Positions 1-14,861 of a stretch of DNA of 14,861 bases are shown piece after piece (position 1 is the first letter of the stretch; each line of letters opens with the position of its first letter). The translations under genes were made by a program, and so were the position numbers. The stretch comes from Promethearchaeota archaeon (GTDB lineage: Archaea; Asgardarchaeota; Lokiarchaeia; Sigyniarchaeales; SOKP01): assembly GCA_004524535.1 (NCBI GenBank), contig SDNY01000092.1, forward strand, positions 1-14,861, read 5' to 3'. Under the pieces are notes generated by a model. The model saw only the letters and a program-made list of their open reading frames with translations. It had not been told where the DNA came from and did no database searches.

Positions 1-465
1 AAAGCTACGGGCAGACAATACAGATCAATTAGAACTTTTAATTTGGATAATACTTCAAAGACAGCATTCATAACGATGGGCTCCATGTGTGGGAATATAA
101 TTAGCTATATGACTAAGCATAAAGACGTTGGTCTTATAAAAATAAAAACCTACCGTCCTTTTCCATACGAAGATTTACAAAAAATTATACAAGATCACAA
201 TATAGAGAAGCTAATTATTTTAGAGAAATCAGATGCATTAAATGGATTATTACCTCCTTTTTCAATGACAATTGCTTCAGCATTATATCCCCTGGGAACG
301 TTATTTAGAAGCTTTATAGTTGGATTAGGCGGTCGCGATGTTACAAGAGACGAATTTGATATAGCTAAAAAGAAGATGGAAACCGTAAAAGATATGAAAG
401 GACCTCTCTATTCATATCTAGGTGTGAGAGAGACAAAAGATAAAATTCATGGGGTGAATAAATAA
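1..465 (+). CDS. porA: Pyruvate/2-oxoacid:ferredoxin oxidoreductase alpha subunit, C-terminal domain (5'-truncated by window edge)
   Basis: Frame 1 is open from base 1 (KATGRQYRSIRTFNLDNTSKTAFITMGS...). It has PorA domain II motifs MGS, GLIKIKTYRPFP and IVGLGGRD, and lies directly upstream of a PorB-like gene. The TTG at 43 is internal. Confidence 0.88.
   Translation, partial: KATGRQYRSIRTFNLDNTSKTAFITMGSMCGNIISYMTKHKDVGLIKIKTYRPFPYEDLQKIIQDHNIEKLIILEKSDALNGLLPPFSMTIASALYPLGTLFRSFIVGLGGRDVTRDEFDIAKKKMETVKDMKGPLYSYLGVRETKDKIHGVNK
451..457 (+). promoter_or_regulatory. Shine-Dalgarno site (GGGGTGA) for the permuted porB
   Basis: Archaeal-type GGTGA core inside the end of porA, 10 nt before ATG 468. 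Confidence 0.7.
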
Positions 466-467
466 AG

Positions 468-1556
468 ATGTCGAAACCAGAGAGAAATATTATACAAATT
501 GATGATTTATTGGCCAGAGATGGAAAATGTAATGTGTTATTTCTAAATTACGACAATGAAGCTTTTATGAATACAGGAATTCAAGAAAGTGGTGGCACTC
601 CACCTCATGCTGCTACAACTACAGGTCCCGCTGGAGAGAGAATTCCTGGGAAAGTTGGAGTGAAACAAGATTTAGTAACTCCTTTTGGATTTTATGGAAC
701 AAAATCAACCTTTTTAGCAACTGTTAATCCAGCTTATCCAAACGATTTGATGGGAAAGATAGTCGAAGCGTTAAAATCAAATGGAGGTGCTTTCATTCAA
801 TCATATGCCGATTGTATGAGAGGCTGGAGGCATGCTTCTCAAGATGCTGTAAAAGTTTCTAAACTTGCGACCGATTGTGGTTATTGGCCATTATACACAA
901 TAAGAGTAAAAGATGGTATGCCAACTTTTTCCTATTATAGAGGTTTAGAAATAGATAAAGAAAAATTTGTGGACTATTTAAAATCCATGGGCAGATTCAG
1001 ACATCTATTTAGGCCAAAATTTATGGAAAAAGAAATCGATGAGATAATTTATTACACAGAACAAAGAAATGAAAAATTAAAAGGACTAATAAAGCAATTT
1101 GGAACAGAAAAACCAGTTGATGTATATAGAGTAAATCGGAAAGCATTAGAACCACAAAAACATCTGCTTCCTGGACATGGTTTATGTCCTGGTTGCGGCG
1201 CCGGAATGTTTTTAAACCAAATGGCAACAGCTGCACAATTAGTTGCTGGGACAAATATTATCTATGTAAATAACACAAGCTGTTCTGAAGTCTCTACTTC
1301 AAAAGATTTTGTTACGTCTTGGACTGTACCATGGGTACACCATCTATTTGAATCAGGAGCAACAATCGCTGACGCAATTTCAACAACTTATAAAATCATG
1401 AAATCAAAAGGTCTATATAACGGCGAAGTACCATATCTTATACATATTGGTGGTGATGGCTCCACTTATGACATTGGGTTCCAATTTCTTAAGGCTGCTT
1501 TGGTAAGAACGAGCAGTTTTGTAGAAATGAATGAATACCTTTTCAATCAGAAATAA
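468..1556 (+). CDS. porB: Pyruvate/2-oxoacid:ferredoxin oxidoreductase beta subunit (TPP and 4Fe-4S binding), circularly permuted
   Basis: All PorB motifs are present but in swapped order. YDNEAFMNTGIQ.S..TP..A.TTT.PAG, ATVNPAYP.DL..K, DCMRGW, GYWPLY and GRFRHL are in the N-terminal half. LLPGHGLCPGCG, NTSC.EV, W.VPWVH..FE and GGDGSTYDIGFQ are in the C-terminal half. Confidence 0.9.
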   Translation: MSKPERNIIQIDDLLARDGKCNVLFLNYDNEAFMNTGIQESGGTPPHAATTTGPAGERIPGKVGVKQDLVTPFGFYGTKSTFLATVNPAYPNDLMGKIVEALKSNGGAFIQSYADCMRGWRHASQDAVKVSKLATDCGYWPLYTIRVKDGMPTFSYYRGLEIDKEKFVDYLKSMGRFRHLFRPKFMEKEIDEIIYYTEQRNEKLKGLIKQFGTEKPVDVYRVNRKALEPQKHLLPGHGLCPGCGAGMFLNQMATAAQLVAGTNIIYVNNTSCSEVSTSKDFVTSWTVPWVHHLFESGATIADAISTTYKIMKSKGLYNGEVPYLIHIGGDGSTYDIGFQFLKAALVRTSSFVEMNEYLFNQK

Positions 1557-1582
1557 TTTCTTTTTTAAACTCTTTTTTTTTT
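1557..1582 (+). terminator. Oligo(T) archaeal-type terminator after porB
   Basis: T6 (1561-1566) and T10 (1573-1582) tracts immediately after the TAA stop. Confidence 0.5.
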
Positions 1583-1630
1583 AATAGTTATTTGAAAATT
1601 GTTTTATTATTTTATATCTTTTTAATTTTT

Positions 1631-2404
1631 ATGGTTATAAAAATTGAGAAAATAACTATAGATAAGGGAAAAATCTACACAATAATAATTGATAATCCTG
1701 AAGTAAAGAACGCCGTCGATGGACCAACAGCTAAAGAACTCGCCGATGCGTTTCGAGAGTTTGAACAAGACGATAATGCTTTAGTTGCTGTTTTGTGGGG
1801 TGCTAATGGAACGTTTTGTGCAGGAGCAAATCTAAAAACTATCACAGATGGGCGTGGTAATAGGATAGATACTAAAGGAGATGGTCCTATGGGGCCTTCT
1901 AGAATGGTTCTTTCAAAACCCGTAATCGCAGCAGTGGCGGGATACGCTGTCGCAGGTGGTCTTGAACTTGCATGTTGGTGTGATATGCGAGTTGTTGAGA
2001 AAAATGCGATATTTGGAGTATTTTGCCGTAGATTTGGAGTACCTCTTATTGATGGAGGAACTGTACGCCTTCCTAGATTAATTGGGTTAAGTCGAGCAAT
2101 GGATATGATTCTTACAGGTCGCCCTGTAACGGCTGAAGAGGCCTATTCTTGGGGTCTTGCGAATCGTATTGTTGAAAATGATCAATCAAGACCAGAAGCA
2201 GAAAAATTGGCAAGAGAAATTGCTGTTCATCCTCAAACATGTATGAGACATGATCGTTTATCAACATATGAGCAATTTGGGATGAGTATGAAGGATGCAA
2301 TGGTTAATGAATTCGATTGGGGCTTAAAAACGTTAGCCAGTGGAGAATATCTAGAAGGAAGTAGAAAATTTACTCAAGGTAAAGGAAAGCATGGTAAATT
2401 CTAA
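1631..2404 (+). CDS. Enoyl-CoA hydratase/isomerase (crotonase) family protein, 257 aa
   Basis: Motifs KNAVD, GTFCAGANL, KPVIAAVAGYAVAGGLELA, FGVFCRRFGVPLIDGGTVRLPRLIG and ILTGRPV.AEEA..WGL.N. ATG 1631 is preferred over TTG 1592 because the extension is just translated T-rich intergenic DNA. Confidence 0.92.
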   Translation: MVIKIEKITIDKGKIYTIIIDNPEVKNAVDGPTAKELADAFREFEQDDNALVAVLWGANGTFCAGANLKTITDGRGNRIDTKGDGPMGPSRMVLSKPVIAAVAGYAVAGGLELACWCDMRVVEKNAIFGVFCRRFGVPLIDGGTVRLPRLIGLSRAMDMILTGRPVTAEEAYSWGLANRIVENDQSRPEAEKLAREIAVHPQTCMRHDRLSTYEQFGMSMKDAMVNEFDWGLKTLASGEYLEGSRKFTQGKGKHGKF

Positions 2405-2476
2405 AATAAAAATTTTCATTACATAATTTTTATTTTTTTCCATTTATTTTTAGTTATTATAAATTAAGGTGAAATT

Positions 2477-2881
2477 ATGATAGCATTCGAACAATTGAGA
2501 GTGAAAACTCCAAAAAGAGAAGTTCTTATAAATATAACGAGCGATATTAATAAAATTGTAAGGAATAGTAAAATAAAAGAAGGAGTATGTCGAATTTTTG
2601 TCCCCCATACTACAGCGGGAATTACTATCAATGAAAACGCAGATCCCGCAGTAATGGAAGATATTATAAATTATTTGAAAAAATTAATTCCTCAAAGAGC
2701 AGGCTTTTCTCACATGGAGGGCAATAGCGATGCGCACATAAAATCTTCCTTAACTGGTCCGTCTTTAGATGTTATTATTCACAATGGTGGATTAGTATTG
2801 GGGACTTGGCAAGGAATTATGTTCGCAGAATATGACGGGCCGCGTCATAGAAAGGTATATGTACAAGTTCAAGGAGAATAA
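2477..2881 (+). CDS. yjbQ: YjbQ/UPF0047 family protein (secondary thiamine-phosphate synthase-like)
   Basis: Motifs FVPHTTAGITINENADP, H.EGNSDAHIKSSL and LGTWQGI.F.E.DGPR.R. AGGTGA SD at 2467-2472. Confidence 0.93.
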   Translation: MIAFEQLRVKTPKREVLINITSDINKIVRNSKIKEGVCRIFVPHTTAGITINENADPAVMEDIINYLKKLIPQRAGFSHMEGNSDAHIKSSLTGPSLDVIIHNGGLVLGTWQGIMFAEYDGPRHRKVYVQVQGE

Positions 2882-2982
2882 TTCAAAAATAAAGGATTTT
2901 ATTTTCTATAAACACAAATTTAATATTATCAAAAAAAATTTATATTTATAAAATAAAAACCATATTTTCAGAGGAGTTAAGA

Positions 2983-3315
2983 TTGAGTTTGGATTGGAAC
3001 TTTTATTTAAATCTAATTTGTTCAATAGGAGGAATAGTATTTTTTTTATATAGCTTGTATATTATTAAAAGAATTAAAGAGTTGTTCCCTGGCACTAGAA
3101 TAATCAAAAAATGGTATGCTATTCAAGCATTAATTATTTTATTTTTGGTGGGGTATGTTGTAAACATAATCTTTTTAGCGTTAGAATATATCGAAATTGT
3201 AACTATTATGACTGCGATTGTTTATATTTTTGGTGCTATATTTGTTTTAATTGTCGTAGATCTAAGTTATAAAACATATAAATTAATTTTATTAGAATCC
3301 TCGTCAAAAAAATAG
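2983..3315 (+). CDS. Small integral membrane protein (about 3 TM helices), function unknown
   Basis: TTG start 6 nt after GAGGAG. Three hydrophobic segments with a W...LI.LFLVGY....I...VYIFGAIFV.IVV.LS.KT pattern. Confidence 0.75.
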   Translation: MSLDWNFYLNLICSIGGIVFFLYSLYIIKRIKELFPGTRIIKKWYAIQALIILFLVGYVVNIIFLALEYIEIVTIMTAIVYIFGAIFVLIVVDLSYKTYKLILLESSSKK

Positions 3316-3348
3316 AATTATCTGTCGTAGATATATTTAAGATTCAAA

Positions 3349-3750
3349 ATGTTTTCGATTATTGATGATTTATGGATCTTTTCTAAGGATGGCCTTCCTA
3401 TTGTTGAATTTTGTAAAGAGGGTAAAATAGACAAATCACTTTTAGGAGCATTTTTTTCTGCGATAAAATCATTTAGTAAGAAAATCTCATCTGGAGATGA
3501 ATTATCTTCATTCATACTGAAAGATTGTAAATTCACATTAGTTTCAGCACTTAAGAATGACGCTATTCTCGTATGTAAATCGGATCCGAAGCATAAAGAA
3601 AAAAAAATCCATAAACTATGCAATGTTATTGTTAGAATTTTTGAGGAGACATTCGACTCATCAGATATCAATAATTGGGATGGAGATTTATCTTTTTTTG
3701 ATGATTTCAAGGACAAGTTAGACCTTTATTTTAAGATGAGCGCCTTATAA
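3349..3750 (+). CDS. Stand-alone longin/roadblock-like small protein (Asgard-type)
   Basis: 133 aa with LWIFSKDGLPI (beta hairpin), D..LLGAFFSAIKSFS (helix), three strands, then I...F...F...I..W.GD...F..F...L. This pattern resembles Asgard/Mon1-Fuz-type longin domains. Fold assigned by pattern recognition only. Confidence 0.65.
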   Translation: MFSIIDDLWIFSKDGLPIVEFCKEGKIDKSLLGAFFSAIKSFSKKISSGDELSSFILKDCKFTLVSALKNDAILVCKSDPKHKEKKIHKLCNVIVRIFEETFDSSDINNWDGDLSFFDDFKDKLDLYFKMSAL

Positions 3751-3779
3751 ATTAAAAATCTTAATATTTTTAAAAAAAA
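3751..3779. terminator. Short convergent intergenic region with AT-only inverted repeat and oligo(T) on the minus strand
   Basis: TTAAAAAT (3752-3759) and ATTTTTAA (3766-3773) are reverse complements. The A-run at 3772-3779 gives a T tract right after the larA-like stop. Confidence 0.35.
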
Positions 3780-5015
3780 TTATCCTGCCATTTGAATGCT
3801 ACAAGGAAAAACCGCTACCTTTGGGAATTCACCATGAACTTTACCTAATTCATCAATTAATTCATCCCAATCATCAAATAATTCCACTGTTTTTGGAAAG
3901 AAATGGTGTAAATCAGAGAGACTAATGTTAGGTGAGAAAAAATAAACTTTTCTCCTATGAACAAATCTACTCCACAAAATACTTTCACCTAAATTCTTAT
4001 ATAATTTTGCACCAGTTTCAGCTACAAGACTATGATATCCACGTCCCTCGTATGAAGATGACATCAACACAATAGTACCTCTTCTATCAATAATTTTATT
4101 TGGAGCAGTCATGAGAAAATTAAAACCTTTAATTGACTGATTTAATTCTGAATCTTCGGGATATAAATTGAAGAAGCCGATTTGATTTTCAAGCGTATAA
4201 CTTGTTGCATAATGTTCTTTTGCGATCTCCATAGCTTTTCTATGAGCATCTCTAAAGTGCCCTGCTGTTAAAGCAGCAATATCCCCTCGTTCATTTAAGA
4301 TGGCATTAATTGAGAAATCTAATCCTACTCTATCCGCAATATTTTCAATATCTTTCCTAATATCAGTCATTCTTCCTACTCCTGCTCCAATTCCCCTCAT
4401 TCCTGCTGAATGATTTGCTTCGAGAGTGCGGATTCCACAAACTCCTGGTAATACAATCTTTGCACCACCTCCAAATCCTGCTAAAGGATGAGGTATCACT
4501 CCGCCTAAAGAGATTCTTAAATCAGCACTGATATAAGTAGAATTAACATCAATAGGAGTACCGATTTTTGATTCACCAAGATTAGTGAGATTTTCATAGG
4601 GATGGTGATTTTCAATGCAAATTGTATCTACAACTTCTCTTCCAAGCTTTAAAATACAATCATGTCGATTCATTGGCTTATGAGCTCCTAAAGCCAATAA
4701 AATAATTATTTGATCCTTTGCTATACTTGCTTTTTCTAATTCCTCAAATACGAATGGTAGAATTTTATTAGCCGGAGTGGTTCTAGTCATATCATCAACA
4801 ACAATTACCACTTTTTCCTTTCCTTTCGCTAATTCTGATAATTTAGGAGTTCCAATTGGATTGAGAAGAGATTCTTTAATTTCATTATCAGATATTTGTG
4901 GAGCGTCCGCTCCGTTCATTTTACAAACAGATACGTCCCAAGAATCTGGAAATTTTAATTCTAAATATTCTGGCTCTCGCCACGCAGCCCAGGGTACTTT
5001 AAATATCTTTACCAA
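3780..5015 (-). CDS. LarA-family nickel-pincer (NPN)-dependent lactate racemase / 2-hydroxyacid epimerase homolog
   Basis: Motifs L.NPIG...L.EL, IVVDDMTR.TP, LALGAH..M, NH, PH.LAGFGGG.K.VLPGV.G and ANH. These match the LarA catalytic His residues, the cofactor-attachment Lys and the Ni-ligating His. The C-terminal domain is divergent. Confidence 0.85.
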   Translation of the reverse strand: MVKIFKVPWAAWREPEYLELKFPDSWDVSVCKMNGADAPQISDNEIKESLLNPIGTPKLSELAKGKEKVVIVVDDMTRTTPANKILPFVFEELEKASIAKDQIIILLALGAHKPMNRHDCILKLGREVVDTICIENHHPYENLTNLGESKIGTPIDVNSTYISADLRISLGGVIPHPLAGFGGGAKIVLPGVCGIRTLEANHSAGMRGIGAGVGRMTDIRKDIENIADRVGLDFSINAILNERGDIAALTAGHFRDAHRKAMEIAKEHYATSYTLENQIGFFNLYPEDSELNQSIKGFNFLMTAPNKIIDRRGTIVLMSSSYEGRGYHSLVAETGAKLYKNLGESILWSRFVHRRKVYFFSPNISLSDLHHFFPKTVELFDDWDELIDELGKVHGEFPKVAVFPCSIQMAG

Positions 5016-5169
5016 TAAAATTCACTTCTATATTTTTTTTAAAATATTATTTCAATTTCCATTCTTAATTAATCTTTTAAATTTCTCTTAAGATAAAAAG
5101 ATAAAGAATTGAATATTTACTTAAACATCAAAATTCTAAGAAAACACATTCTGTTTTACTTTTACTCAG

Positions 5170-5994
5170 ATGATTGATAATATAAAGATTTTCGATTCAC
5201 ATATTCATTATATGGGGAAATTTAAAAGAAGGGATGAAACCTTAATAGACTTTTTAGATAGATTTGGAATTGACAAATCAATTGTCACTACATTAAACAC
5301 ATCTGCAAATAAGAATTTGCTAATTAGAGATGATATAAATTTTAACGAAAAGGAATATGCTGAAAAATTATATGCAAAAAACCAATATAATCACGAAGAA
5401 GTTAGAGATTTAATTAAGAAAAATTCAGATAGATTAGTAGGGGTTTATTGGTTTAATCCCAGAATTGCCGATGACAACGACTGGAAAACTTTAGAAAAAT
5501 ACATTAAAGATTACAATTTTAAAGGTGTAAAAATTCAAGCTTCACTTGATAATTTAAAGATTCCAAATGATTTGTTTGAATTAGCGGAATTTTGTATAGG
5601 TTTCGATATTCCACTTTTTATTCATTCTGGACAATCCTTCTTTTTTCAAGAACCATTTCGCGTTAAAGATATTTATACTTTAGTTAAAAAATATGGAGAG
5701 CTTAAATGCGTCATTTTGCATGCGGCTTATACTATGGAATATTGTATTAGTTGTTTGAAATTTTTTCCTAAATGCTCTAATGTATATTTTGAAACGAGTT
5801 TATCGGTCCCATATGGGATAAATATTTTAATTAAAGTTATGGGGGACCACCGAGTTATGTATGGATCAGATTCACCAGCAGCAACCACCCCAGATATAGA
5901 AATTAATAAGATTAGAATTCTTGATTTAGATAAAAAAACGTTAGAAAATGTATTTTATAACAATATAAGCAATCTAATAGGTGAAATCTCATAA
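5170..5994 (+). CDS. Metal-dependent amidohydrolase (Amidohydro_2-like TIM barrel), copy 1
   Basis: Motifs IFDSHIH, FKGVKI, P.FIHSG, ILHAA, NVYFETS and RVMYGSDSP. Confidence 0.88.
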   Translation: MIDNIKIFDSHIHYMGKFKRRDETLIDFLDRFGIDKSIVTTLNTSANKNLLIRDDINFNEKEYAEKLYAKNQYNHEEVRDLIKKNSDRLVGVYWFNPRIADDNDWKTLEKYIKDYNFKGVKIQASLDNLKIPNDLFELAEFCIGFDIPLFIHSGQSFFFQEPFRVKDIYTLVKKYGELKCVILHAAYTMEYCISCLKFFPKCSNVYFETSLSVPYGINILIKVMGDHRVMYGSDSPAATTPDIEINKIRILDLDKKTLENVFYNNISNLIGEIS

Positions 5995-6857
5995 ATCAAC
6001 AAGATAAATTTAGAATTTTTGACAGTCATCTCCATACCTATGGAAAATTTATAGGAGAATCTAAAAATGTCCTTGAATATATGGATAGATTTAACGTAGA
6101 GAAAGCAATAATAACCACAATTAATAGAGCAAAATTTTTTCAAAAGAATGATAACTCCGAAAATGTAAATCCGCTCGAGAATAATATGGCAGATCTCTTA
6201 AAGAATTTTAAAAAAGTAATGTTAAAAGGGCAGTTACCTCATCAAGACGTAATAGATATTGCAAATAAAGCTCCCGAACGATTTTATAAACTTTTTTGGT
6301 TTAATCCTAATTTAGAACCTGACGAAGAGGAAGCAAACTATAAAATTTTAGAAGAACATTTTAAAAAAGGATTCTGCGGCGTAAAAATACATAACATCTT
6401 TCATATGTTCAGAGTTCCAAGAGATATTCTTAAATTAGTGTCATTTATTCAGGAATATAACAAAAATTTGATATTATTTATTCATTCTGCTCCTGATACT
6501 TCGTTTTTTAAAGGTGTTTCATGTAGGGATATCGCAAAATTAGCAAAAAAATTTCCAGAATTGAGAATAATTGTAGGGCATGCTGCTTACTCAATGGAGT
6601 TTTCTATTGATGTAACTTTAATTTTAAAGAAATATCAAAATTCATACTTTGAAACTTCTGCTTCTGTGTCTTTTGGAATTTATAATATATTTAAGGCTGT
6701 AGGCTCTAAACGTATATTATTTGGGTCTGATTCTCCGGTTGTATCTCCAATACAGCTTGAAATCGATAAAATATTGACATTGCCTATTTCTAATGAGGCA
6801 AAACAAGATATATTGTATAATAATGTGAACAAGCTACTTGAATTTTGTCAAAATTAA
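5991..6857 (+). CDS. Metal-dependent amidohydrolase, copy 2 (288 aa with inferred ATA start)
   Basis: The frame is open upstream of ATG 6081 and encodes INQQDKFRIFDSHLHTYGKF, containing the metal-binding DxHxH motif. The in-frame stop is at 5982. AGGTGA SD (5979-5984) lies 6 nt before ATA 5991. Downstream motifs GVKIH, FIHS, IVGHAA, YFETS and LFGSDSP. Confidence 0.85.
   Translation: MNQQDKFRIFDSHLHTYGKFIGESKNVLEYMDRFNVEKAIITTINRAKFFQKNDNSENVNPLENNMADLLKNFKKVMLKGQLPHQDVIDIANKAPERFYKLFWFNPNLEPDEEEANYKILEEHFKKGFCGVKIHNIFHMFRVPRDILKLVSFIQEYNKNLILFIHSAPDTSFFKGVSCRDIAKLAKKFPELRIIVGHAAYSMEFSIDVTLILKKYQNSYFETSASVSFGIYNIFKAVGSKRILFGSDSPVVSPIQLEIDKILTLPISNEAKQDILYNNVNKLLEFCQN
6606..6857 (+). repeat. 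Left copy of ~250 bp direct repeat (3' end of amidohydrolase 2); partner at 10076-10327
   Basis: Gap-free alignment at offset 3470. By hand count, 19 mismatches in 198 nt between 6660-6857 and 10130-10327. Confidence 0.9.
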
Positions 6858-6998
6858 TCTAATTAAAGATCCTTATTATTTCATCTCAAATTTACTAAAT
6901 TATTTATATTTTTAATTCCCAAATTCAGACTTTAACAAATTTAAAATATCTTTAACAAATAATCTTATTATTAAAATACACTCATTTAAGTTCTAATG

Positions 6999-8512
6999 AA
7001 AGATAAAATTAAATGGAAATCTTATCGTTTTAAATAAAGTTAAATAATGTAAAAATAGTAAAAATTAACTTTTAAGATATTCTTGTAATAATAAAAAAAT
7101 TAATATACTTTAGAGGAAGAACGTCCATTCCATATTTTAAAAAAATTCTTCTTATTCAAGCTTCTCAAATTCGAGTACCTGGAGAATATCATTTTGGCAT
7201 ACCATATGGTGTTTTATTTCTGAATTCTTATTTGCGTAAGGCAGGCATAGATACTATGATTTTCGATAGACAATTAAATACTTCTCTGAAGAAATTAAAA
7301 GAAGTTACTTTAACATATAAGCCCGATGTTATTGGCATTTCTGCTATGACTTCTCAAAGTTATGATGCAAAATTGATAATGAAGAAAGTTAGAGAATGGA
7401 TGCCTAATATAATTATCATTGTTGGAGGTGTTCATTTTACTGCAGAACCACAAGATGGTCTTGATTATGGAGCGGATTATGTTTTTCGAGGAGAGGGTGA
7501 AAAATCTCTTCTTGATTTTATGAATAATGGCCCTCCCAAAGATAATAAAATTATTTGGGGTGAGCCTCTGGAAAATCTAAATGATATTCCAAATTTAACT
7601 ATGGATGATGTCAAACCTTATATCGAAATGCTTCGATGGGGTCCGATATATTATTTTGTTTTGATTGGATCAAGAGGGTGCCCTTATAATTGTAATTTTT
7701 GTTTGGGAAAAGACCAGAGACCAAAGGGAATACGCTATCATTCAATTGAGAGAATTATTGATTTTATCTCTCAAATTGTTGAAAAATTCGATGTCCATAT
7801 ATTTGGATTTTATGATGATATATTTGTTATGAAAAATTCGCGTGTAAGAGAATTTTGTGAAAAAATTAAGAAAGAATTCTCAATTCCTCTTAAATTTGAA
7901 TGCTTTACTCATGTAGGACACGGCAATAGTGAATTATATCGAATAATGCATCAATCTGGTTTTACTCGCATGTCATTTGGAGTTGAGCATGGAAATGATA
8001 GGATTTTATCAATAATGGATAAAAATATAACTATTGCAAAAATAAAGGAGACATGCAGACAAATTTATAAGGCGGGCATAAAACTTCATCTCACATATGT
8101 CCTAGGAAATATAACAGAAACAAATGAGACAATAACGGAAACTGTAAATTTCGCAATTTACCTTCATAACAAATATAAAGCAAGATCTTATATTTCTTTC
8201 ATGCAACCATTGCCAGGTGCTCCTATATATAAAGTTGCTGAGCAATATGGCTACTATTTACCGAAAAAAAGAATTTTTCAGAATATAGATTTATCTTATA
8301 TTCCTTTTAATGTTAGTGTTAAACATATGATAAAAGAAAGGAAAAGAGGTATGATTATGGGTAATTATTATGGGCTTTTGAGGAGTTATAAAATGATAAA
8401 ATTTATTCATTTTCTAAGAATTAAGACTAAAAATATCTGGGGTAAAAAGATTTTAATTAAGAGGATAAATAAAATTGCCTTAATATTGGAAGCTCTAGGA
8501 CGTTATACCTCA
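6999..8512 (+). repeat. Tandem duplication unit 1 (upstream region + radical SAM gene)
   Basis: AAAGATAAAA.TAAATG.AAATCTTATCGTTTTAAATAAAGT starts at both 6999 and 8513, and the following genes are close paralogs. Confidence 0.88.
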
Positions 8513-8530
8513 AAAGATAAAAATAAATGA
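7127..8530 (+). CDS. Cobalamin-binding radical SAM protein (class B methyltransferase-like), paralog 1; inferred ATT start
   Basis: B12 domain (KKILLI...PYGVLFLNSYLRKAG, PDVIGIS, IVGGVHFT, GEGE) plus SRGCPYNCNFC, F.DDIF, GVEHG and LPGAPIY. The first strand and helix lie upstream of TTG 7232. GAGGA (7113-7117) precedes ATT 7127. Confidence 0.85.
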   Translation: MPYFKKILLIQASQIRVPGEYHFGIPYGVLFLNSYLRKAGIDTMIFDRQLNTSLKKLKEVTLTYKPDVIGISAMTSQSYDAKLIMKKVREWMPNIIIIVGGVHFTAEPQDGLDYGADYVFRGEGEKSLLDFMNNGPPKDNKIIWGEPLENLNDIPNLTMDDVKPYIEMLRWGPIYYFVLIGSRGCPYNCNFCLGKDQRPKGIRYHSIERIIDFISQIVEKFDVHIFGFYDDIFVMKNSRVREFCEKIKKEFSIPLKFECFTHVGHGNSELYRIMHQSGFTRMSFGVEHGNDRILSIMDKNITIAKIKETCRQIYKAGIKLHLTYVLGNITETNETITETVNFAIYLHNKYKARSYISFMQPLPGAPIYKVAEQYGYYLPKKRIFQNIDLSYIPFNVSVKHMIKERKRGMIMGNYYGLLRSYKMIKFIHFLRIKTKNIWGKKILIKRINKIALILEALGRYTSKDKNK

Positions 8531-10071
8531 AAATCTTATCGTTTTAAATAAAGTAAAAATAGTAAAAACTAACTTTTAATATATCTTTTATTAATAAAAA
8601 TATTATTTATTATACAAGATTAGCTAGATAATATAGGAAAACAATTTCAAGGTTTTTTGGAGGAAGATCAAGGATTCCTTATTTTAATAAAATTCTTCTT
8701 ATTCAAGCATCTCAAATTCGAGTACCTAGAGAATATTCAGGCGGTCCTGCCCTACCACCATATGGTATTTTATTTCTGAATTCTTATTTGCGGAAGGCAG
8801 GTATTGTTACTATGATTTTCGATCGACAATTAAACATTTCTCTGAAGAAATTAAAAGAAGTTATTTTAGCATATAAACCTGATGTTATTGGCATTTCTGC
8901 TGTGACTTCTCAAAGTTATGATGCAGAATTGATAATAAAGAAAGTGAGAGAATGGATGCCTAATATAATTATCATTGTAGGAGGGGTTCATTTTACTGCA
9001 GAACCACAAGATGGTCTTGATTATGGAGCGGATTATGTTTTTCGAGGAGAGGGTGAAAAATCACTTCTTGATTTTATGAATAATGGTCCTCCAAAAGATA
9101 ATAAAATTATTTGGGGTGAACCTCTGGAAAATCTAGATGATATTCCTAATTTAACTATGGATGATATTGAACCCTATATCGAAATCAATCGATGGGGTCC
9201 GAGACATTTTTTTTATTTGATTGGATCAAGAGGGTGCCCTTATAATTGTAATTTTTGTTTGGGAAAAGATCAGAGACCAAAGGGAATACGCTATCATTCA
9301 ATTGAGAGAATTATTGATTTTATCTCTCAAATTGTTGAAAAATTCGAGGTCTATAGATTTCTATTTGTTGATGATATATTTGTTATGAAAAATTCGCGTG
9401 TAAGAGAATTTTGTGAAAGAATTAAGAAAGAGATCTCAGTTCCTCTTTATTTGAACTGTTTAACTCATGCAGGACACGGTAATAGTGAATTATATCACAC
9501 AATGCGTAAATCTGGTTTTACTGGCATTGGTTTAGGCGTTGAGCATGGAAATGACAGGATTTTATCGATAATAGGAAAAAATGCAACTAAAGCAAAAATT
9601 GAGGAGACATGCATACAAATTTATAAGGCGGGCATTAAACTTCATCTCCTATATATACTAGGAAATATAACAGAAACAAATGAAACAATTACAGAAACTG
9701 TAGATTTCGCAATTTACCTTCATAACAAATATAAGGCAAAATCTTGGTTTTCTTTTATGCAACCATTGCCAGGTGCTCCTATATATAAAGTTGCTGAGAA
9801 ATATGGCTACTATTTACCGAAAAAAAGAATTTTTCAGTATCATGAAATATCCTATGTTCCTTTTAATGCTACTGTTAAACATATGATAAAAGAAAGGAAA
9901 AGAGGTATGATTATGGGTAATTATTTTGGGCTTTTAAGGAGTTATAAAATGATAAAATTGATTCATTTTCTAAGAGATAGGACCAAAAATATCTGGGGTA
10001 AAAAGATGTTAATTAAAAGGATAAATAAAATTGCCTTAATCTTGGAAGCTCTAAGATCTTATACCTCAAAA
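8513..10071 (+). repeat. Tandem duplication unit 2
   Basis: Second copy of the 6999-8512 unit. Both coding copies end in TATACCTCAAAA. Confidence 0.88.
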
Positions 10072-10074
10072 TAG
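8674..10074 (+). CDS. Cobalamin-binding radical SAM protein, paralog 2; inferred ATT start
   Basis: Same motifs as paralog 1. The frame is open from stop 8629 with no ATG/GTG/TTG before 8788. GGAGGA (8659-8664) precedes ATT 8674 and IPYFNKILLIQ...LPPYGILFLNSYLRK. Confidence 0.85.
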   Translation: MPYFNKILLIQASQIRVPREYSGGPALPPYGILFLNSYLRKAGIVTMIFDRQLNISLKKLKEVILAYKPDVIGISAVTSQSYDAELIIKKVREWMPNIIIIVGGVHFTAEPQDGLDYGADYVFRGEGEKSLLDFMNNGPPKDNKIIWGEPLENLDDIPNLTMDDIEPYIEINRWGPRHFFYLIGSRGCPYNCNFCLGKDQRPKGIRYHSIERIIDFISQIVEKFEVYRFLFVDDIFVMKNSRVREFCERIKKEISVPLYLNCLTHAGHGNSELYHTMRKSGFTGIGLGVEHGNDRILSIIGKNATKAKIEETCIQIYKAGIKLHLLYILGNITETNETITETVDFAIYLHNKYKAKSWFSFMQPLPGAPIYKVAEKYGYYLPKKRIFQYHEISYVPFNATVKHMIKERKRGMIMGNYFGLLRSYKMIKLIHFLRDRTKNIWGKKMLIKRINKIALILEALRSYTSK

Positions 10075-10075
10075 T

Positions 10076-10327
10076 ATGGGAGTAGCATTTAATTTAAAGA
10101 AATTTAAGAAAGTATATTTCGAGACATCGGCTTCTGCGTCTTTTGGCATTTATAATAGATTTAAGGCTGTAGGCTCTAAACATATTTTATTTGGATCTGA
10201 CTCTCAGGTTGTATCTCCAATCCAGCTTGAAATCGACAAAATATTGACATTGCCTATTTCTAATGAGGTAAAACAAGATATTTTTTACAATAATGTAAAC
10301 AAGCTAACTGAATTTTGTCGAAAATAA
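10076..10327 (+). pseudogene. C-terminal 83-codon remnant of amidohydrolase 2 (right copy of direct repeat)
   Basis: Aligns without gaps to 6606-6857. It lacks the HxH and the other His ligands, and GSDSP is changed to GSDSQ. Confidence 0.8.
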
Positions 10328-10485
10328 TTTTATTATTAATCCTTTAATTTTTATCAACTTTATAATTAACATTAGAGATTGCTATTATAGGTTTAACTTC
10401 TTATTTTCATTTTAATAAAAAAATAATTAAAAGTTGTAAACTATATTTTCTATTAAGTAATAAAAAAAAATTTATTAGTGATTAA

Positions 10486-11016
10486 GTGACACTTGATAAA
10501 GATAATTACAAGATTATAGAAATTTCAAAAGTTGACAACAAAATCATTAAAAAATTAATAGATAATTTAAAATTAGGCATATCTGATGATTTTTTCATCT
10601 CGTTTGAAAGTTTATTAAAATTAGGAAAAAAAGCAGAATCTGTGATAGAATCACAAATTAAAGATATAGACGATGAACATAGCTTTAAAAAAGAAATTTT
10701 TAATATTCTTCTAAAGTCTATCAAGACAAAAGAGATTGAAAATCCTCTAATAAAAAAACTGTATCATCCTGATTTTACTATTAGAGCAAAAGCAATAATA
10801 CATCTTGAAAAGAATGAGGCTTTAAAATATCTTAATTTAATTTTACCATTAGCATCTGATCCAGACGATTCTGTGCGATGGGCAGTTGTAAAATTACTTG
10901 GAACACTAAATCAGTTAGAAAATCCAAATATTTCTAAAGTATTAAAAAAGCAATTAAATTTTGAATCAAATCCAGTAATTCAAAAAAAAATTAAAAAGAT
11001 TTTAAAAAAATCTTAA
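10486..11016 (+). CDS. HEAT-repeat (PBS-lyase/HEAT_2-like) protein
   Basis: Repeats LIKKLYHPDFTIRAKAIIHL, LILPLASDPDDSVRWAVVKLLG and LNFESNPVIQKKIKKIL. GTG start after AGTGA. Confidence 0.75.
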   Translation: MTLDKDNYKIIEISKVDNKIIKKLIDNLKLGISDDFFISFESLLKLGKKAESVIESQIKDIDDEHSFKKEIFNILLKSIKTKEIENPLIKKLYHPDFTIRAKAIIHLEKNEALKYLNLILPLASDPDDSVRWAVVKLLGTLNQLENPNISKVLKKQLNFESNPVIQKKIKKILKKS

Positions 11017-11187
11017 AATAAATTTTTTAGTTTTTGTAAGTAAAATTTTAAATTGATTTTGACACTCATTAATTTAATTCAAAAAATTTTGTATTTTCCA
11101 AATTATTAAAAATTAGAGTGCATATTTATTATCAATAATATTGTTCAGTCTTTTATAATTTCAAATCTGATAACAAGGTAATAAAAA

Positions 11188-14100
11188 TTGACGCAAAATA
11201 GAATCCAAATCGGAATAGAAAAGATTCTATTAGCACTAGTTATCTATTTCGTTCTAATATTTGTAGCTAATAATCAAACTTCTCAAAATCACCTCACAAA
11301 AAACCAGAACGAAATTGAAGTAGTGAATGAAATTAACCCGCCCAAAAATTCGGATTTTATGATTTTAGACAATATCACGATCGATGATGATGGGGGTACA
11401 ACTGGATATATTACATGGAGCGAAGCTGCTGATCTTGAGTGGTGTAGTGGAAATGGATCTTTGGGTAATCCTTATGTTATTGAAAATGTAATAATTAATG
11501 GATGGGGTTCTACCTGTGTTAGTATTAAGGATTCAACTGCTTATTTTATTATAAGAAATTGTACATTTTATAATGCCACTGGAACTAGTATTGGAATAGA
11601 ATTAGATTCTGTTTCCAATGGTACGATATTTAACAACAGCATATCAAATTGTTATAGAGGGATCTCAATTATGGATAGCACTAATAATTCAATTTTGGAG
11701 AATAATATTATTAATTCTTCATTTGTAGGTATTTATTTATATAGCTATTGTGATTTTAATAATATTTCGGGGAATATTATTACCAGTAATGGGGGTAGTA
11801 TTGGAATCTATATCCATTCTTATTGTGATAACAATACAGTGAAAGGTAATGAAGTCTTTTCCCATAGCAATGAAGGTATATATATCTATAATAATGAAAA
11901 TAATACTGTATCTGATAATATCATCTATAATAATAATATTGGGATTCATATAAGATTTAAAGGAAATCATATAGTGTCTGGTAATAATATTTATAATTCT
12001 AGTCAATATGGAATTGATATATATCGTTGTCATAATAACATGGTTTTCGATAACAACATAACAAATAGCAGATTAGACGGAATTTATCTATATCAGAGTG
12101 AGAATTGCAGCTTTATAAATAATGCAATGACCTTAGAGGGGATGCTTTTTTCAGGTAGCATTATAGAATTATCTTCTCATAATGTCGATACTTCTAATAC
12201 GGTTAATGGGAAAATTTTATATTATTATAACCATGTAAATGACCTTGATGAAAATAATTTTATAAATGCTGGACAGGTAACTCTAATATCCTGTAATAAT
12301 TCTATTATTTCAAATATTAATGCTTCATATGGTTCAAGGGCAATTTCTCTTTATTATTGTAAAAATAATACAATCCATAATAACATCGTATCATATAGTA
12401 AATATCATGGGATATCCTTATTATATAGTCAAAATTGCTCAATAACAAATAATTATGGAGAGGATATGAACTATAATACAATCTATTTATATAAAAGCTC
12501 TAATAATACCATATCTAATAATGAAGCGCATTATAATCGGGTTCATGGTATCTACTTGGTAGATAGTCATAATTGCACTATATCAGACAATAGAATGTAT
12601 GCTAACGAAGATTACGGAATAGATTTATATAGTTCAAGCAACAATACTGTCTACAATAACACATGTTCTGATGGTGATTCTTATGGAATAAGAATTTATC
12701 AAGGAACATTAAACAAAATCATTGGTAACCATATTTTTAAGAATACTCTATATGGTATTTATGTGTATACTAGTAGTAATAATCTCCTTAGTATGAACAA
12801 TGTTTCTAAAAACCAACAATATGGCATATTTTTAAGAAGTGGTTCTGAAAATATCGTGGTTAGAAATAATATTACTGATAATGTCGGGTATGGTGTTTAT
12901 ATATATGACAGTCCGAAAAACCACATAAAGAATAACTATTTTATTAATAATGGTATGCAGTTTTTTGATGATTTTGACGATTTAATCTCATATGATATTG
13001 ATAATAGCAACAAAATCAACGGAAAGATTCTCTATTGCTATATTAATGAGACTTCTTTAGGAGCAACCGATTTTACGGACGCGGGTAAAATTATTTTGAT
13101 CAATACTCACAATTCTAAAATAGAAGACCTCTCAATATCAAATTCTTCAATAGGAATTCTTTTATGGTATAGTAATAATAATTCATTTTCTAATATAACC
13201 ATAGTTAATGAAAGCTTAGCTTTTTACTTTGAAAATAGTGATTTGAATAATATAACTAATTCTAATATTTATAACAATCGAATAGGAATTTATTTATATT
13301 CTAGTGATAACACATATGTTAACTCTTCTAAAGTGAGTTCTAATATTGAGAATGGAATTTATTATGATTTTTGTTCTAATACAAAAATCTTAGATAGCAG
13401 CATTAGTGATAATCATAATTATGGTATCTATATTATGAGAAGTACAAGCAATACCATAGTCAATAATAGTATTGAAGATAATTCTTATGGAATTTTTATT
13501 GACGATCAATCTCAAGATTCAATGATTTATTTAAATTACTTTATTGGAAATAGTATTCATGCAATTGATGATGGTTTCAATAATAAATGGGATAACGGAA
13601 CAATTGGTAATTTTTGGGATAATTTTACTGGAAAAGATATAGATGATGACGGAATTGGAGACTCTATATACCTAATACCGGGTTTGGCTTCAAATAGCGA
13701 TACCAAACCCATTTGGTGGGATGCCCCTCATGTAAATTTTTCATTTCCTCTAAATTTTACCTTATTTGGAAAAAATGCACCTTTTTATAATATAACTATT
13801 GAGGAGGGAAGGGGGCATACATTCTGGTATGAATTCATTGAAACGGGATATAAATCTTACACTGCCATGAGTGGTATAGCTAATGAAAATGTGAGTGGAT
13901 TTTTCAATCAAGGTCAATGGAGCCTTCTTAGTGATGGTAACCAACTTATTAGATTTTATATTAATGATAGTATGGGTTTTATGAATACCACAGATGTTGT
14001 AATTAGAGTAGATCAAACAGGTCCAGCAATTACTCTCATAGTTACACCATTATTCTCTAATGGAATCACAAACATTCAAGCGTACAACACTACAGAAATC

Positions 14101-14861
14101 ATTACCGGGAATCTATTAGCAAATGTTTCCTTACCTGGTGAAGGTTATATTTACCCCGAACTTACTTACCAAGGCACGAATCTATGGACGGGATCCTTTG
14201 ATGTATTTTTGTATGGTAGTGGTACTTATACGGTTTATGTGAATGGAACAGATAAAGTCGGGAATGTCGGATATGCTACACCCGAGAGTATCACCGGAGA
14301 TTTGATTAGTCCAACAATTACTCTAATGGTTTTACCATTATTCTCTAATGGAATTACAGTAATTCAAGCTTTTAATATTACCGAAGTCATCAGTGGCAGT
14401 CTCTTAGCGAATGTATCCCTTCCCGGAGGAGAATATATTTATCCCGCTCTAACTTATCAGGGCGGGAATTTATGGAATGGGTCATTTGATGTATCTGCAT
14501 ATGGTGAAGGCTCCTATACTGTGTATGTAAATGGTAGCGACCTTGCAGGGAATATAGGTTATGCTACACCCGAGAGTATTACTGGAGATTTAACACCTCC
14601 AACAATTACTCTCACAGTTTTACCACTTATTTCTAACGGTCTAACGGTGATTGAAGCATATAACACAAGCGAAGTAATAAGTGGTAGTCTTTTAGCGAAT
14701 GTATCCCTTCCCGGAGGAGGAAATTATTATCCCGCTCTAACTTATCAGGGCGGGAATTTATGGAATGGGTCATTTGATGTATCTGCATATGGCGAAGGAT
14801 CCTATATGGTTAATGTAAATGGTAGCGACCTTGCAGGGAATATAGGTTATGCAACTCCCAA
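11188..14861 (+). CDS. Large secreted/cell-surface protein: signal/TM segment, NosD-like right-handed beta-helix (PbH1/CASH) region, then tandem Ig-like domains; 3'-truncated (>1,220 aa)
   Basis: Frame 1 is open from TTG 11188 to the window end. It reads MTQNRIQIGIEKILLALVIYFVLIFVANN, WCSGNGSLGNPYVIEN, many GIYL..S.NN.I..N.I..N turns, GNFWDNFTGKDIDDDGIGD (about 13606), then D..PTITL...YTVYVNG.D.AGN repeats. Many N-X-S/T sequons. Confidence 0.9.
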   Translation, partial: MTQNRIQIGIEKILLALVIYFVLIFVANNQTSQNHLTKNQNEIEVVNEINPPKNSDFMILDNITIDDDGGTTGYITWSEAADLEWCSGNGSLGNPYVIENVIINGWGSTCVSIKDSTAYFIIRNCTFYNATGTSIGIELDSVSNGTIFNNSISNCYRGISIMDSTNNSILENNIINSSFVGIYLYSYCDFNNISGNIITSNGGSIGIYIHSYCDNNTVKGNEVFSHSNEGIYIYNNENNTVSDNIIYNNNIGIHIRFKGNHIVSGNNIYNSSQYGIDIYRCHNNMVFDNNITNSRLDGIYLYQSENCSFINNAMTLEGMLFSGSIIELSSHNVDTSNTVNGKILYYYNHVNDLDENNFINAGQVTLISCNNSIISNINASYGSRAISLYYCKNNTIHNNIVSYSKYHGISLLYSQNCSITNNYGEDMNYNTIYLYKSSNNTISNNEAHYNRVHGIYLVDSHNCTISDNRMYANEDYGIDLYSSSNNTVYNNTCSDGDSYGIRIYQGTLNKIIGNHIFKNTLYGIYVYTSSNNLLSMNNVSKNQQYGIFLRSGSENIVVRNNITDNVGYGVYIYDSPKNHIKNNYFINNGMQFFDDFDDLISYDIDNSNKINGKILYCYINETSLGATDFTDAGKIILINTHNSKIEDLSISNSSIGILLWYSNNNSFSNITIVNESLAFYFENSDLNNITNSNIYNNRIGIYLYSSDNTYVNSSKVSSNIENGIYYDFCSNTKILDSSISDNHNYGIYIMRSTSNTIVNNSIEDNSYGIFIDDQSQDSMIYLNYFIGNSIHAIDDGFNNKWDNGTIGNFWDNFTGKDIDDDGIGDSIYLIPGLASNSDTKPIWWDAPHVNFSFPLNFTLFGKNAPFYNITIEEGRGHTFWYEFIETGYKSYTAMSGIANENVSGFFNQGQWSLLSDGNQLIRFYINDSMGFMNTTDVVIRVDQTGPAITLIVTPLFSNGITNIQAYNTTEIITGNLLANVSLPGEGYIYPELTYQGTNLWTGSFDVFLYGSGTYTVYVNGTDKVGNVGYATPESITGDLISPTITLMVLPLFSNGITVIQAFNITEVISGSLLANVSLPGGEYIYPALTYQGGNLWNGSFDVSAYGEGSYTVYVNGSDLAGNIGYATPESITGDLTPPTITLTVLPLISNGLTVIEAYNTSEVISGSLLANVSLPGGGNYYPALTYQGGNLWNGSFDVSAYGEGSYMVNVNGSDLAGNIGYATP
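14011..14861 (+). repeat. 288-bp (96 aa) tandem coding repeats, Ig-like domains, about 3 copies visible
   Basis: Units start at 14011 (DQTGPAITL), 14299 (DLISPTITL) and 14587 (DLTPPTITL). Each contains LLANVSLPG...YP.LTYQG.NLW.GSFDV..YG.G.Y.V.VNG.D..GN.GYATP. Confidence 0.93.

Follow-up and report, generated by a model that had tools for sequence, protein, structure and literature searches.

A PorB-type beta subunit with swapped halves in Asgard archaea of the class Promethearchaeia

Two halves of PorB in swapped order

We analysed a stretch of 14,861 nucleotides from the Asgard archaeon Promethearchaeota archaeon (contig SDNY01000092.1, positions 1 to 14,861; hereafter the window). It carries an uninterrupted open reading frame (ORF) of 362 codons plus a stop codon, with an ATG start, at 468-1556 on the forward strand. 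The encoded protein resembles PorB, the beta subunit of 2-oxoacid:ferredoxin oxidoreductases (OFORs), with the two halves of the chain in reverse order. Canonical PorB runs from the iron-sulfur (Fe-S) CxxC motif through GDG, a helix and the DN strand to the C-terminal half. As aligned, the permuted chain runs from a start just ahead of the DN strand through the old C-terminal half, an 18-residue linker, the old N-terminal half and the GDG helix to a 10-residue tail. The best explanation of the data as a whole, with a probability of roughly 0.85, is that the gene encodes a working, circularly permuted beta subunit of a heteromeric OFOR of the POR/VOR branch.

The swap is evident from comparison with the sequences of solved structures. 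Using HMMER, residues 229-347 matched residues 6-115 of the 296-residue PorB of Methanosarcina acetivorans (9bt4_C, E value 1e-16), while residues 22-193 matched residues 118-282 of the same chain as a separate stretch in swapped order (E value 4e-26). An identical two-stretch pattern was obtained with the oxalate oxidoreductase (OOR) beta subunit 5c4i_C. The cysteines C240, C243, C272 and C116 align with the cluster cysteines of 9bt4_C. Matches of this kind, in two swapped stretches, are far beyond chance. A profile of canonical betas told the same story. It was built from 50 library representatives of 280-345 aa, taken from 146 matches (P0126-P0271), of which the 96 others were excluded as fused, intein-bearing or fragments. 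This profile aligned residues 22-206 with its positions 128-300, and residues 225-352 with positions 8-130; the halves separately scored 143.7 and 108.4 bits. With hhalign, alignment positions 18-212 corresponded to canonical positions 133-319. Two swapped, non-overlapping stretches, against both 9bt4_C and the profile, are what the initial annotation of this DNA had anticipated when it proposed a circular permutation of a PorB-type subunit.

By alignment, the two parts of the thiamine-diphosphate motif lie at opposite chain ends, with the DN strand at the start and GDG plus its helix at the end; the DN and GDG residues are ~300 positions apart. All of the following features lie on the forward strand. 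Residues 22-206 (531-1085), the C-terminal half of canonical PorB (9bt4_C 118-282), contain the DN strand, the NTGIQES loop, C116, WPLY and GRFRHL. D29 and N30, in NYDNEAF (N27-Y28-D29-N30), are encoded at 552-557, and C116, a predicted ligand of the proximal [4Fe-4S] cluster, at 813-815. From the old C-terminus to the old N-terminus runs the linker (residues 207-224, 1086-1139), which the canonical profile leaves unmatched. A joining linker had been described before, with an extent (~203-231) slightly wider than the one defined by the profile. Residues 225-352 (1140-1523), the N-terminal half of canonical PorB (9bt4_C 6-115), contain GHGLCPGCG with C240 (1185-1187) and C243 (1194-1196), the predicted Fe-S cysteine C272 (1281-1283), VPWVHH, and GGDG followed by a helix. 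The codons of G329-D330-G331 (1452-1460) lie in GGDGSTYDIG, in which GGDG is G328-G331. The residue numbers first assigned to Y28, D29, N30, G328-G331 and the four cysteines were all correct.

Both ends of the chain are new. Residues 1-17 form a new N-terminal tail, followed by an ERGH-like turn (18-21; together 468-530), and residues 353-362 (1524-1553) form a new C-terminal tail beyond the canonical profile. No significant match to the canonical profile was found before residue 18, where the hhalign alignment begins; hidden Markov model envelopes start at residues 11-19.

Conservation and selection

With the canonical profile, the swapped two-domain order was detected in every one of the 107 database relatives with a length of 350-375 aa. 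A protein search matched 240 database proteins to the permuted beta (E value ≤1e-3). The listed full-length relatives (351-368 aa) had 54-96% identity over 96-100% of the query, and ~15 listed rows were shorter pieces. Furthermore, a scan of one genome per species revealed that a relative is encoded in 187 stretches. The 80 best-scoring ones were all near full-length with 75-97% identity. One permuted copy is located on a closed 3.34-Mb chromosome.

The window begins at a contig end within porA, the gene of the alpha subunit, and its source is a metagenome-assembled genome of 198 contigs. Both facts could fit an assembly or binning artefact, in which a chimeric contig merged parts of two porB copies. 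This explanation is refuted, and we give it practically no weight. The same order occurs in all 107 full-length relatives and in 131 genomes, some of them single-contig, plus the closed chromosome. In addition, both junctions are spanned by contigs from sediment metagenomes of two studies other than the likely source study. The porA/porB junction is bridged by one of these contigs (X4 record 24, 300-1061) and the linker by two (X4 record 29, 1032-1502; X3 record 20, 789-1558). A check for misassembly at these places had been recommended, and independent contigs as well as the order shared by other genomes speak for the assembly.

The residues expected to bind cofactors are strictly conserved. 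Across 32 relatives with 53-90% identity, Y28, D29, N30, E31, N35, T36 and G37 are invariant, as are C116, C240, C243, C272, G329, D330 and G331. The latter set includes all four predicted proximal 4Fe-4S cysteines, in agreement with the initial annotation. Mean conservation was 0.74 and 0.78 in the two homologous halves and 0.62 in the linker, compared to 0.56 in the N-terminal tail (1-17), 0.38 in residues 18-21 and 0.51 in the C-terminal tail. The ratio of nonsynonymous to synonymous substitution rates (dN/dS) was 0.070 in the comparison with a 97%-identical ortholog and 0.052 with an ortholog of 93% identity, in a set of 12 loci less L011 and L012, for which the end-anchored alignment failed; dS was saturated at greater distances. 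Sequence data thus identify the permuted gene as real and under selection. The view that it is a functional-type gene gains from the conserved order, the retained cofactor ligands and a dN/dS of 0.05-0.07.

Operon and partner subunits

The 3' end of porA, comprising its last 154 codons (Pfam PFOR_II, E value 1.7e-13), occupies 1-465 of the window on the forward strand, and its 5' part is lost at the contig end. Coupling of the permuted gene to porA through a strong Shine-Dalgarno sequence, as well as a terminator-like T-tract, had been noticed earlier, and both can be read directly from the DNA. A Shine-Dalgarno-like GGGGTGA (451-457) lies 10 nt ahead of the ATG at 468, the porA stop codon is at 463-465, and T-runs follow the stop codon of the permuted gene at 1557-1587. 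The window's porA product is 99% identical to residues 256-409 of a 409-aa alpha from a same-genus genome, and alpha residues 1-304 are encoded on another contig of the source genome (G000:C184:3-914). The two contigs overlap by ~49 codons of porA and probably abut.

The complete operon, seen in three genomes of two families (L017, L018 and L019), has the order fused gamma-delta (326-335 aa), alpha (408-409 aa) and permuted beta. The gamma-delta fusion consists of a POR domain and two 4Fe-4S motifs, and the alpha partner of POR_N and PFOR_II. In addition, the source genome retains canonical alpha and beta genes in two sets, one on C112 and one on C40. The top NCBIfam models for the three subunits were PorB, PorA and PorC, each under its equivalog cut-off, which places the enzyme in the POR/VOR branch. 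The NCBIfam model OxalOxreddelta matched the 335-aa gamma-delta at 71 bits, under its cut-off. Neighbouring genes provide no firm substrate clue, because they differ between families: in the window's family, a hotdog thioesterase is found upstream and an enoyl-CoA hydratase downstream, while in another family the neighbours are an M32 carboxypeptidase and a pyridoxal-phosphate enzyme.

Two genomes depart from this arrangement. In the single-contig genome G278, the permuted beta (C1:1502548-1503597) and its cognate alpha (C1:2045955-2047169; 62% identical to the query alpha) are ~540 kb apart, and no alpha or gamma-delta gene was found beside the permuted beta. At L027:1115-3232 (G257:C34), a 705-aa ORF joins alpha residues 1-319, ~35 unmatched residues and residues 20-358 of the permuted beta. 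This ORF reflects either a deletion that fused alpha and beta in frame, or an assembly collapse.

Predicted fold and contact with alpha

An AlphaFold2 (AF2) monomer model, based on the alignment of 32 relatives, reached a predicted TM-score of 0.87 and a mean predicted local distance difference test score (pLDDT) of 80.4. The best structural matches, by Foldseek and VIA-align, were PorB, OOR and pyruvate:ferredoxin oxidoreductase (PFOR). VIA-align, which is sequential and matched one half, gave 1b0p_A (Z 12.5, root-mean-square deviation 3.4, 185 aligned) and 9bt4_C (Z 10.5). In the AF2 model, a short strand (6-10) at the start of the chain precedes the DN strand (21-29). The linker lies around a helix (187-211) and a strand (212-221), and the chain ends after a strand (323-328), GDG and a helix (336-350). 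Under the usual beta-alpha-beta layout, the cut would be at the turn where the helix is most distant from the cofactor. A break inside the thiamine-diphosphate motif, as first annotated, consequently holds for the sequence, and in the predicted fold it would sit at this far-end turn.

Prediction of the PorA/PorB complex had been suggested as a check, and the model supports a contact between alpha and beta. It scored 0.82, while the best of three controls scored 0.00; among reference cases, 58 of 80 solved complexes but also 2 of 110 mismatched pairs attained this mark. Runs agreed in at least 97% of the contacts, with a partner pLDDT of at least 87. The modelled interface comprises beta residues 262-358, including the new C-terminal tail, of which residues 351, 355, 357 and 358 are predicted to contact alpha. 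The pass may reflect likeness to already solved complexes (POR, OOR).

Proposed function

We propose that the permuted chain forms the same pyrophosphate-binding (PP) domain fold in three dimensions as canonical PorB. D330, near the C-terminal end, and D29/N30, near the N-terminal end, would jointly hold Mg-thiamine diphosphate, and C240, C243, C272 and C116 would hold the proximal [4Fe-4S] cluster. The likely partners are the 409-aa alpha, providing the pyrimidine-binding (PYR) domain, and the fused gamma-delta, providing the coenzyme A (CoA)-binding domain and two [4Fe-4S] clusters. Such a complex would oxidatively decarboxylate a 2-oxoacid, with acyl-CoA, CO2 and reduced ferredoxin as products. 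Our best guess for the substrate is pyruvate or another 2-oxoacid derived from amino acids.

Several observations weigh against this proposal. Family models scored below their cut-offs (Pfam TPP_enzyme_C 19.8 versus 21.9; NCBIfam PorB 200 versus 405 bits; NCBIfam VorB-type 166 versus 405), and no collinear match above a cut-off was found. We attribute this to the swapped halves, each of which scores well alone. The gene is absent from 29 of the 160 genomes of the window's class, some of them rated 98-100% complete, so that members of the class can do without it or replace it. The stretch, and the gene itself, are covered in part only by contigs from RNA libraries (17 of 30 bins in X19 and 15 of 30 in X20; for example X19 record 6, 787-1059 with 1 mismatch, and X20 record 14, 994-1138), and they are no proof of transcription, because such libraries can hold DNA. 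In the monomer model, the conserved loop 32-64 has a pLDDT below 50; the equivalent loop wraps the cofactor and the partner in known enzymes. The Foldseek match to 9bt4_C (E value 8e-11, TMq 0.40) comes from a sequential aligner and covers one half. Finally, as the window's alpha is cut by the contig end, the alpha chain of the complex model was taken from the same-genus genome G167.

The protein might also be a degenerate, non-catalytic relative, which has lost thiamine diphosphate binding and serves as a structural or regulatory partner of alpha. Scores under all family cut-offs, a long stem branch in the tree (0.82 substitutions per site), the two canonical alpha/beta sets that could perform catalysis, and the absence of the gene from 29 genomes would all be compatible with such a role. 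However, none of the Mg-diphosphate and Fe-S ligands varies among relatives of 53-90% identity, and the low scores are explained by the swapped order, as the halves alone reach 143.7 and 108.4 bits. The dN/dS of 0.05-0.07 and the dedicated alpha and gamma-delta genes also speak against degeneration. We therefore regard a non-catalytic protein as improbable and favor a working beta subunit.

Distribution and single origin

The permuted beta is almost confined to one class. Based on a hand count of full-length or clearly permuted-type matches in 399 genomes of the phylum, it was present in 131 of the 160 genomes of the window's class (Promethearchaeia, according to the record titles) and in 1 of the 239 genomes of other Asgard classes. 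Some of the 131 genomes are single-contig. Within the class, it was detected in 109 of 134 genomes of family f1, 1 of 1 in f2, 12 of 14 in f3, 4 of 4 in f4, 1 of 3 in f5, 2 of 2 in f6 and 2 of 2 in f7. The class genomes without the gene belong to families f1, f3 and f5, and those rated 98-100% complete include G205, G266, G269, G198, G177 and G180. Loss of the operon apparently occurred repeatedly within the class.

The sole case outside the class is L028, on a contig of 2801 bp (G075:C23), which is 80% identical to family f1 and probably mis-binned. A 14.9-kb contig in a record titled Nanopelagicaceae bacterium (L103) is probably mis-binned as well. Both carry genes for gamma-delta, alpha and beta with 80-82% identity to family f1. 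A few records titled Thor-, Hod-, Hermod- or Odinarchaeota hold 80-93% identical copies. Because of this high identity, we consider these labels and the bacterial one as unreliable.

In a library of 1.84 billion protein representatives there were 1304 matches. Among the best 150 of these, P0122 (55% identity) was the only full-length match in a single stretch, and P0123 was a 257-aa piece spanning the linker. The other single-stretch rows among the best 150 were short, being either fragments of the permuted type or pieces that cover one half of a canonical beta, and the remaining full-length matches showed the canonical two-stretch pattern.

A tree of 80 rows, in which the halves were re-ordered via the profile (LG+G4, quick search), united 23 of 23 permuted rows in one clade with an SH-aLRT support of 100 and a stem of 0.82 substitutions per site. 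The nearest neighbors were canonical Asgard betas of 326-331 aa, with a support of only 84, and the canonical paralogs of the source genome itself sit in the other main clade. From this tree, we conclude that the swap arose once. It would have taken place in the ancestor of the class Promethearchaeia, starting from the Asgard four-gene porCDAB type, and the permuted gene probably replaced the Asgard porB ortholog. The single origin and the restriction to one class agree with the early suggestion of a lineage-defining change, whereas the 29 of 160 class genomes lacking the gene, some 98-100% complete, do not.

The route by which the halves were exchanged can be addressed from the termini. The initial annotation saw an echo between the new N- and C-termini, as expected from duplication followed by deletion, and this echo did not hold up. 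Local alignment of residues 1-30 with residues 316-362 scored 13, compared to a shuffle mean of 16.9, and the profile and hhalign overlap amounts to only ~4 positions, in the ERGH-like turn. An alignment to the fused PFOR 6cin_A alone reaches back to residue 11. Duplication and deletion are thus no more than a possible origin, as the signature remnant is not detectable at the termini. A search among longer proteins for a tandem or beta-beta fused intermediate yielded none; of the two matches, one was intein-bearing and the other a fused PFOR. Likewise, we found no convincing stand-alone half-genes, as the library proteins of one-half size look like fragments, internal-start calls or frameshifts.

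An alternative to tandem duplication with loss of the outer parts is fission at the turn between the GDG helix and the DN strand, followed by re-fusion in reverse order. The lack of a significant duplicated remnant and of a tandem or beta-beta fused intermediate would be in line with fission, and so would the fact that this region tolerates interruption in relatives, by inteins at three nearby sites. On the other hand, no convincing half-genes were found in the library, and the ERGH-like turn at both ends (2-4 residues), together with the 6cin_A alignment to residue 11, fits a small leftover overlap. Moreover, natural permutants more commonly arise through duplication and deletion. Fission and re-fusion can thus be offered only tentatively, with the odds somewhat against it.

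Comparison with known enzymes

The permuted beta is most instructively compared to the PorB of M. acetivorans (9bt4 chain C), to which it is similar over both halves (overall E value 1e-45). The two share GDG, DN, the four Fe-S cysteines, VPW.H, WPLY and GRF.HL, and a partner alpha composed of POR_N and PFOR_II. They differ in length (296 versus 362 aa), and the permuted beta has swapped halves, the linker and new tails. Furthermore, gamma and delta are separate in the four-subunit archaeal enzyme, but fused in the permuted-beta operon. The oxalate oxidoreductase beta of Moorella thermoacetica (5c4i_C) gives the same two matches (overall E value 3e-42), but is itself collinear. This enzyme also has a fused gamma-delta-like subunit, as does the permuted-beta operon. 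Oxalate is nevertheless not indicated as a substrate, because the scores are far under the equivalog cut-offs.

In the single-chain PFORs of Desulfovibrio africanus (1b0p) and Moorella (6cin), all domains lie on one chain in canonical order, and domain VI (6cin_A 978-1136) aligns with residues 11-179 of the permuted beta. Canonical operons of other Asgard classes (L021-L024) have the order porC-porD-porA-porB, which is the same gene order as in the permuted-beta operon. They encode separate gamma (~188 aa) and delta (~93 aa) subunits, fused in the permuted-beta operon, and collinear betas of 326-331 aa, which are 41-46% identical to the permuted beta over the C-terminal half.

Domain shuffling has been described for thiamine-diphosphate enzymes. 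Part of one preprint treats the PP-PYR-x versus PYR-x-PP order among families as a circular permutation of whole domains, and describes the GDG...N motif as 'strictly maintained' (bioRxiv 10.1101/2021.03.21.436335). Such whole-domain reordering leaves GDG...N contiguous, while the permuted beta is cut within the PP domain, between the halves of the motif. In our literature searches, no OFOR or PFOR beta was described as permuted, in line with the initial statement that none was known; supplementary files were outside their scope, and gene tables of Asgard studies could list the gene as a por or OFOR. The words 'permut', 'Asgard' and 'Loki' do not occur in a November 2026 review on the diversity of PFORs (PMC13768988), and PMC11237513 contained no relevant passage. 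A Protein Atlas search returned canonical TPP_enzyme_C clusters only.

A natural enzyme family that builds this motif from two chain ends would indicate that the PP domain tolerates a break at a helix-strand turn, which could be useful for protein engineering and folding studies. There are also consequences for annotation. The permuted proteins are named 'hypothetical' in NCBI records because the swap makes curated models fail, and one entire oxidoreductase can be overlooked when the metabolism of Loki-type Asgard archaea is reconstructed automatically. According to part of another preprint, OFORs are central to the proposed syntrophic amino-acid catabolism of these archaea (bioRxiv 10.1101/726976). 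As a rearrangement of single origin confined to one class, the swap may also serve as a clean phylogenetic marker.

Candidate mRNA introns and inteins in relatives

In five relatives, an insert of 30 or 31 nt interrupts the codons for the invariant NTG-I-QES loop of permuted porB. Three inserts of 30 nt contain an in-frame TGA and follow the first base of codon 38 (G163, L029:353-382; G273, L030:333-362; G272, L031:382-411). The other two have 31 nt and break the frame. One of them, in G159 (L033:1170-1200), also follows the first base of codon 38, and the other, in G275 (L032:1209-1239), is unrelated in sequence and follows the first base of codon 40. The two positions are 6 nt apart and correspond to 579/580 and 585/586 in the window. 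G273 and G275 belong to the same genus and are 91% identical, yet have different inserts.

In the four cases tested, removal of the insert restored the motif as well as an open frame, 361-365 codons long. Between these genes, the proportions of nonsynonymous and synonymous differences were 0.06-0.16 and 0.70-0.81, respectively. Each insert forms a 9-position hairpin, and three inner-helix pairs show compensatory changes between genomes. A template scan for bulge-helix-bulge structures, blind to the reading frame, had its best solution at the frame-restoring boundaries in 4 of the 5 inserts. The G275 insert has a central helix of 4/4 bp, 3-nt bulges and an inner helix of 9 bp, and those of G163, G273 and G272 have a central helix of 3/4 bp and an inner helix of 9 bp. 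For G159, the best solutions of the scan missed the frame-restoring boundaries. Folding by hand gave a central helix of 4/4 including one G-U, a 5' bulge of 4 nt and one inner-helix mismatch.

These features make the inserts candidate tRNA-type (bulge-helix-bulge) mRNA introns. The literature that we found cites tRNA-type mRNA introns in archaea only for cbf5. The 30-31-nt inserts would extend a very short list of candidate archaeal mRNA introns, in the closest relatives of eukaryotes. A pattern scan for interrupted copies matched 147 of the 160 class genomes, mostly through canonical paralogs; it was unspecific and was not used for counts.

Canonical betas are interrupted in a different manner, by large intein-like inserts of ~165-540 aa with a Cys start and an HN, SN or GN end, followed by C, S or T. 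One insertion site directly follows GDG, another interrupts the YVC-(Y)DNEAY strand, and the third separates YMN from TG. Carriers are P0127, P0135, P0155, P0171, P0173 and P0228; P0160, P0161, P0229 and P0145; P0147, P0166 and P0253; and P0272, for which Pfam intein and LAGLIDADG domains are precomputed. We considered a link between inteins and the permutation and rejected it, as none of the three motif sites in canonical betas coincides with the permutation break.

The swap, the gamma-delta fusion, the burst of sequence change and the putative introns could also be read jointly. A once-only class marker would then coincide with an enzyme of altered properties central to fermentation, expressed from a spliced mRNA in some members. 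We put this forward as a speculation that is probably wrong in at least some of its parts. If true, the re-engineered oxidoreductase would differ in substrate range, assembly or stability, and it would be a core enzyme of the metabolism that underlies eukaryogenesis models, in which amino acids are fermented and ferredoxin is reduced. Some members would express the gene only after tRNA-type splicing of the mRNA, at two intron positions.

Other genes in the window

Downstream of the permuted gene, the window contains ORFs at 3780-5015 (reverse strand), 5170-5994, 6081-6857, 7232-8530, 8788-10074 and 11188-14859. This part encodes a protein with a LarA N-domain and two tandem pairs of paralogs, one pair belonging to amidohydrolase_2 and the other to the B12-binding radical SAM proteins. 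A further protein, which has NosD and beta-helix repeats and is longer than 1224 aa, continues past the window end.

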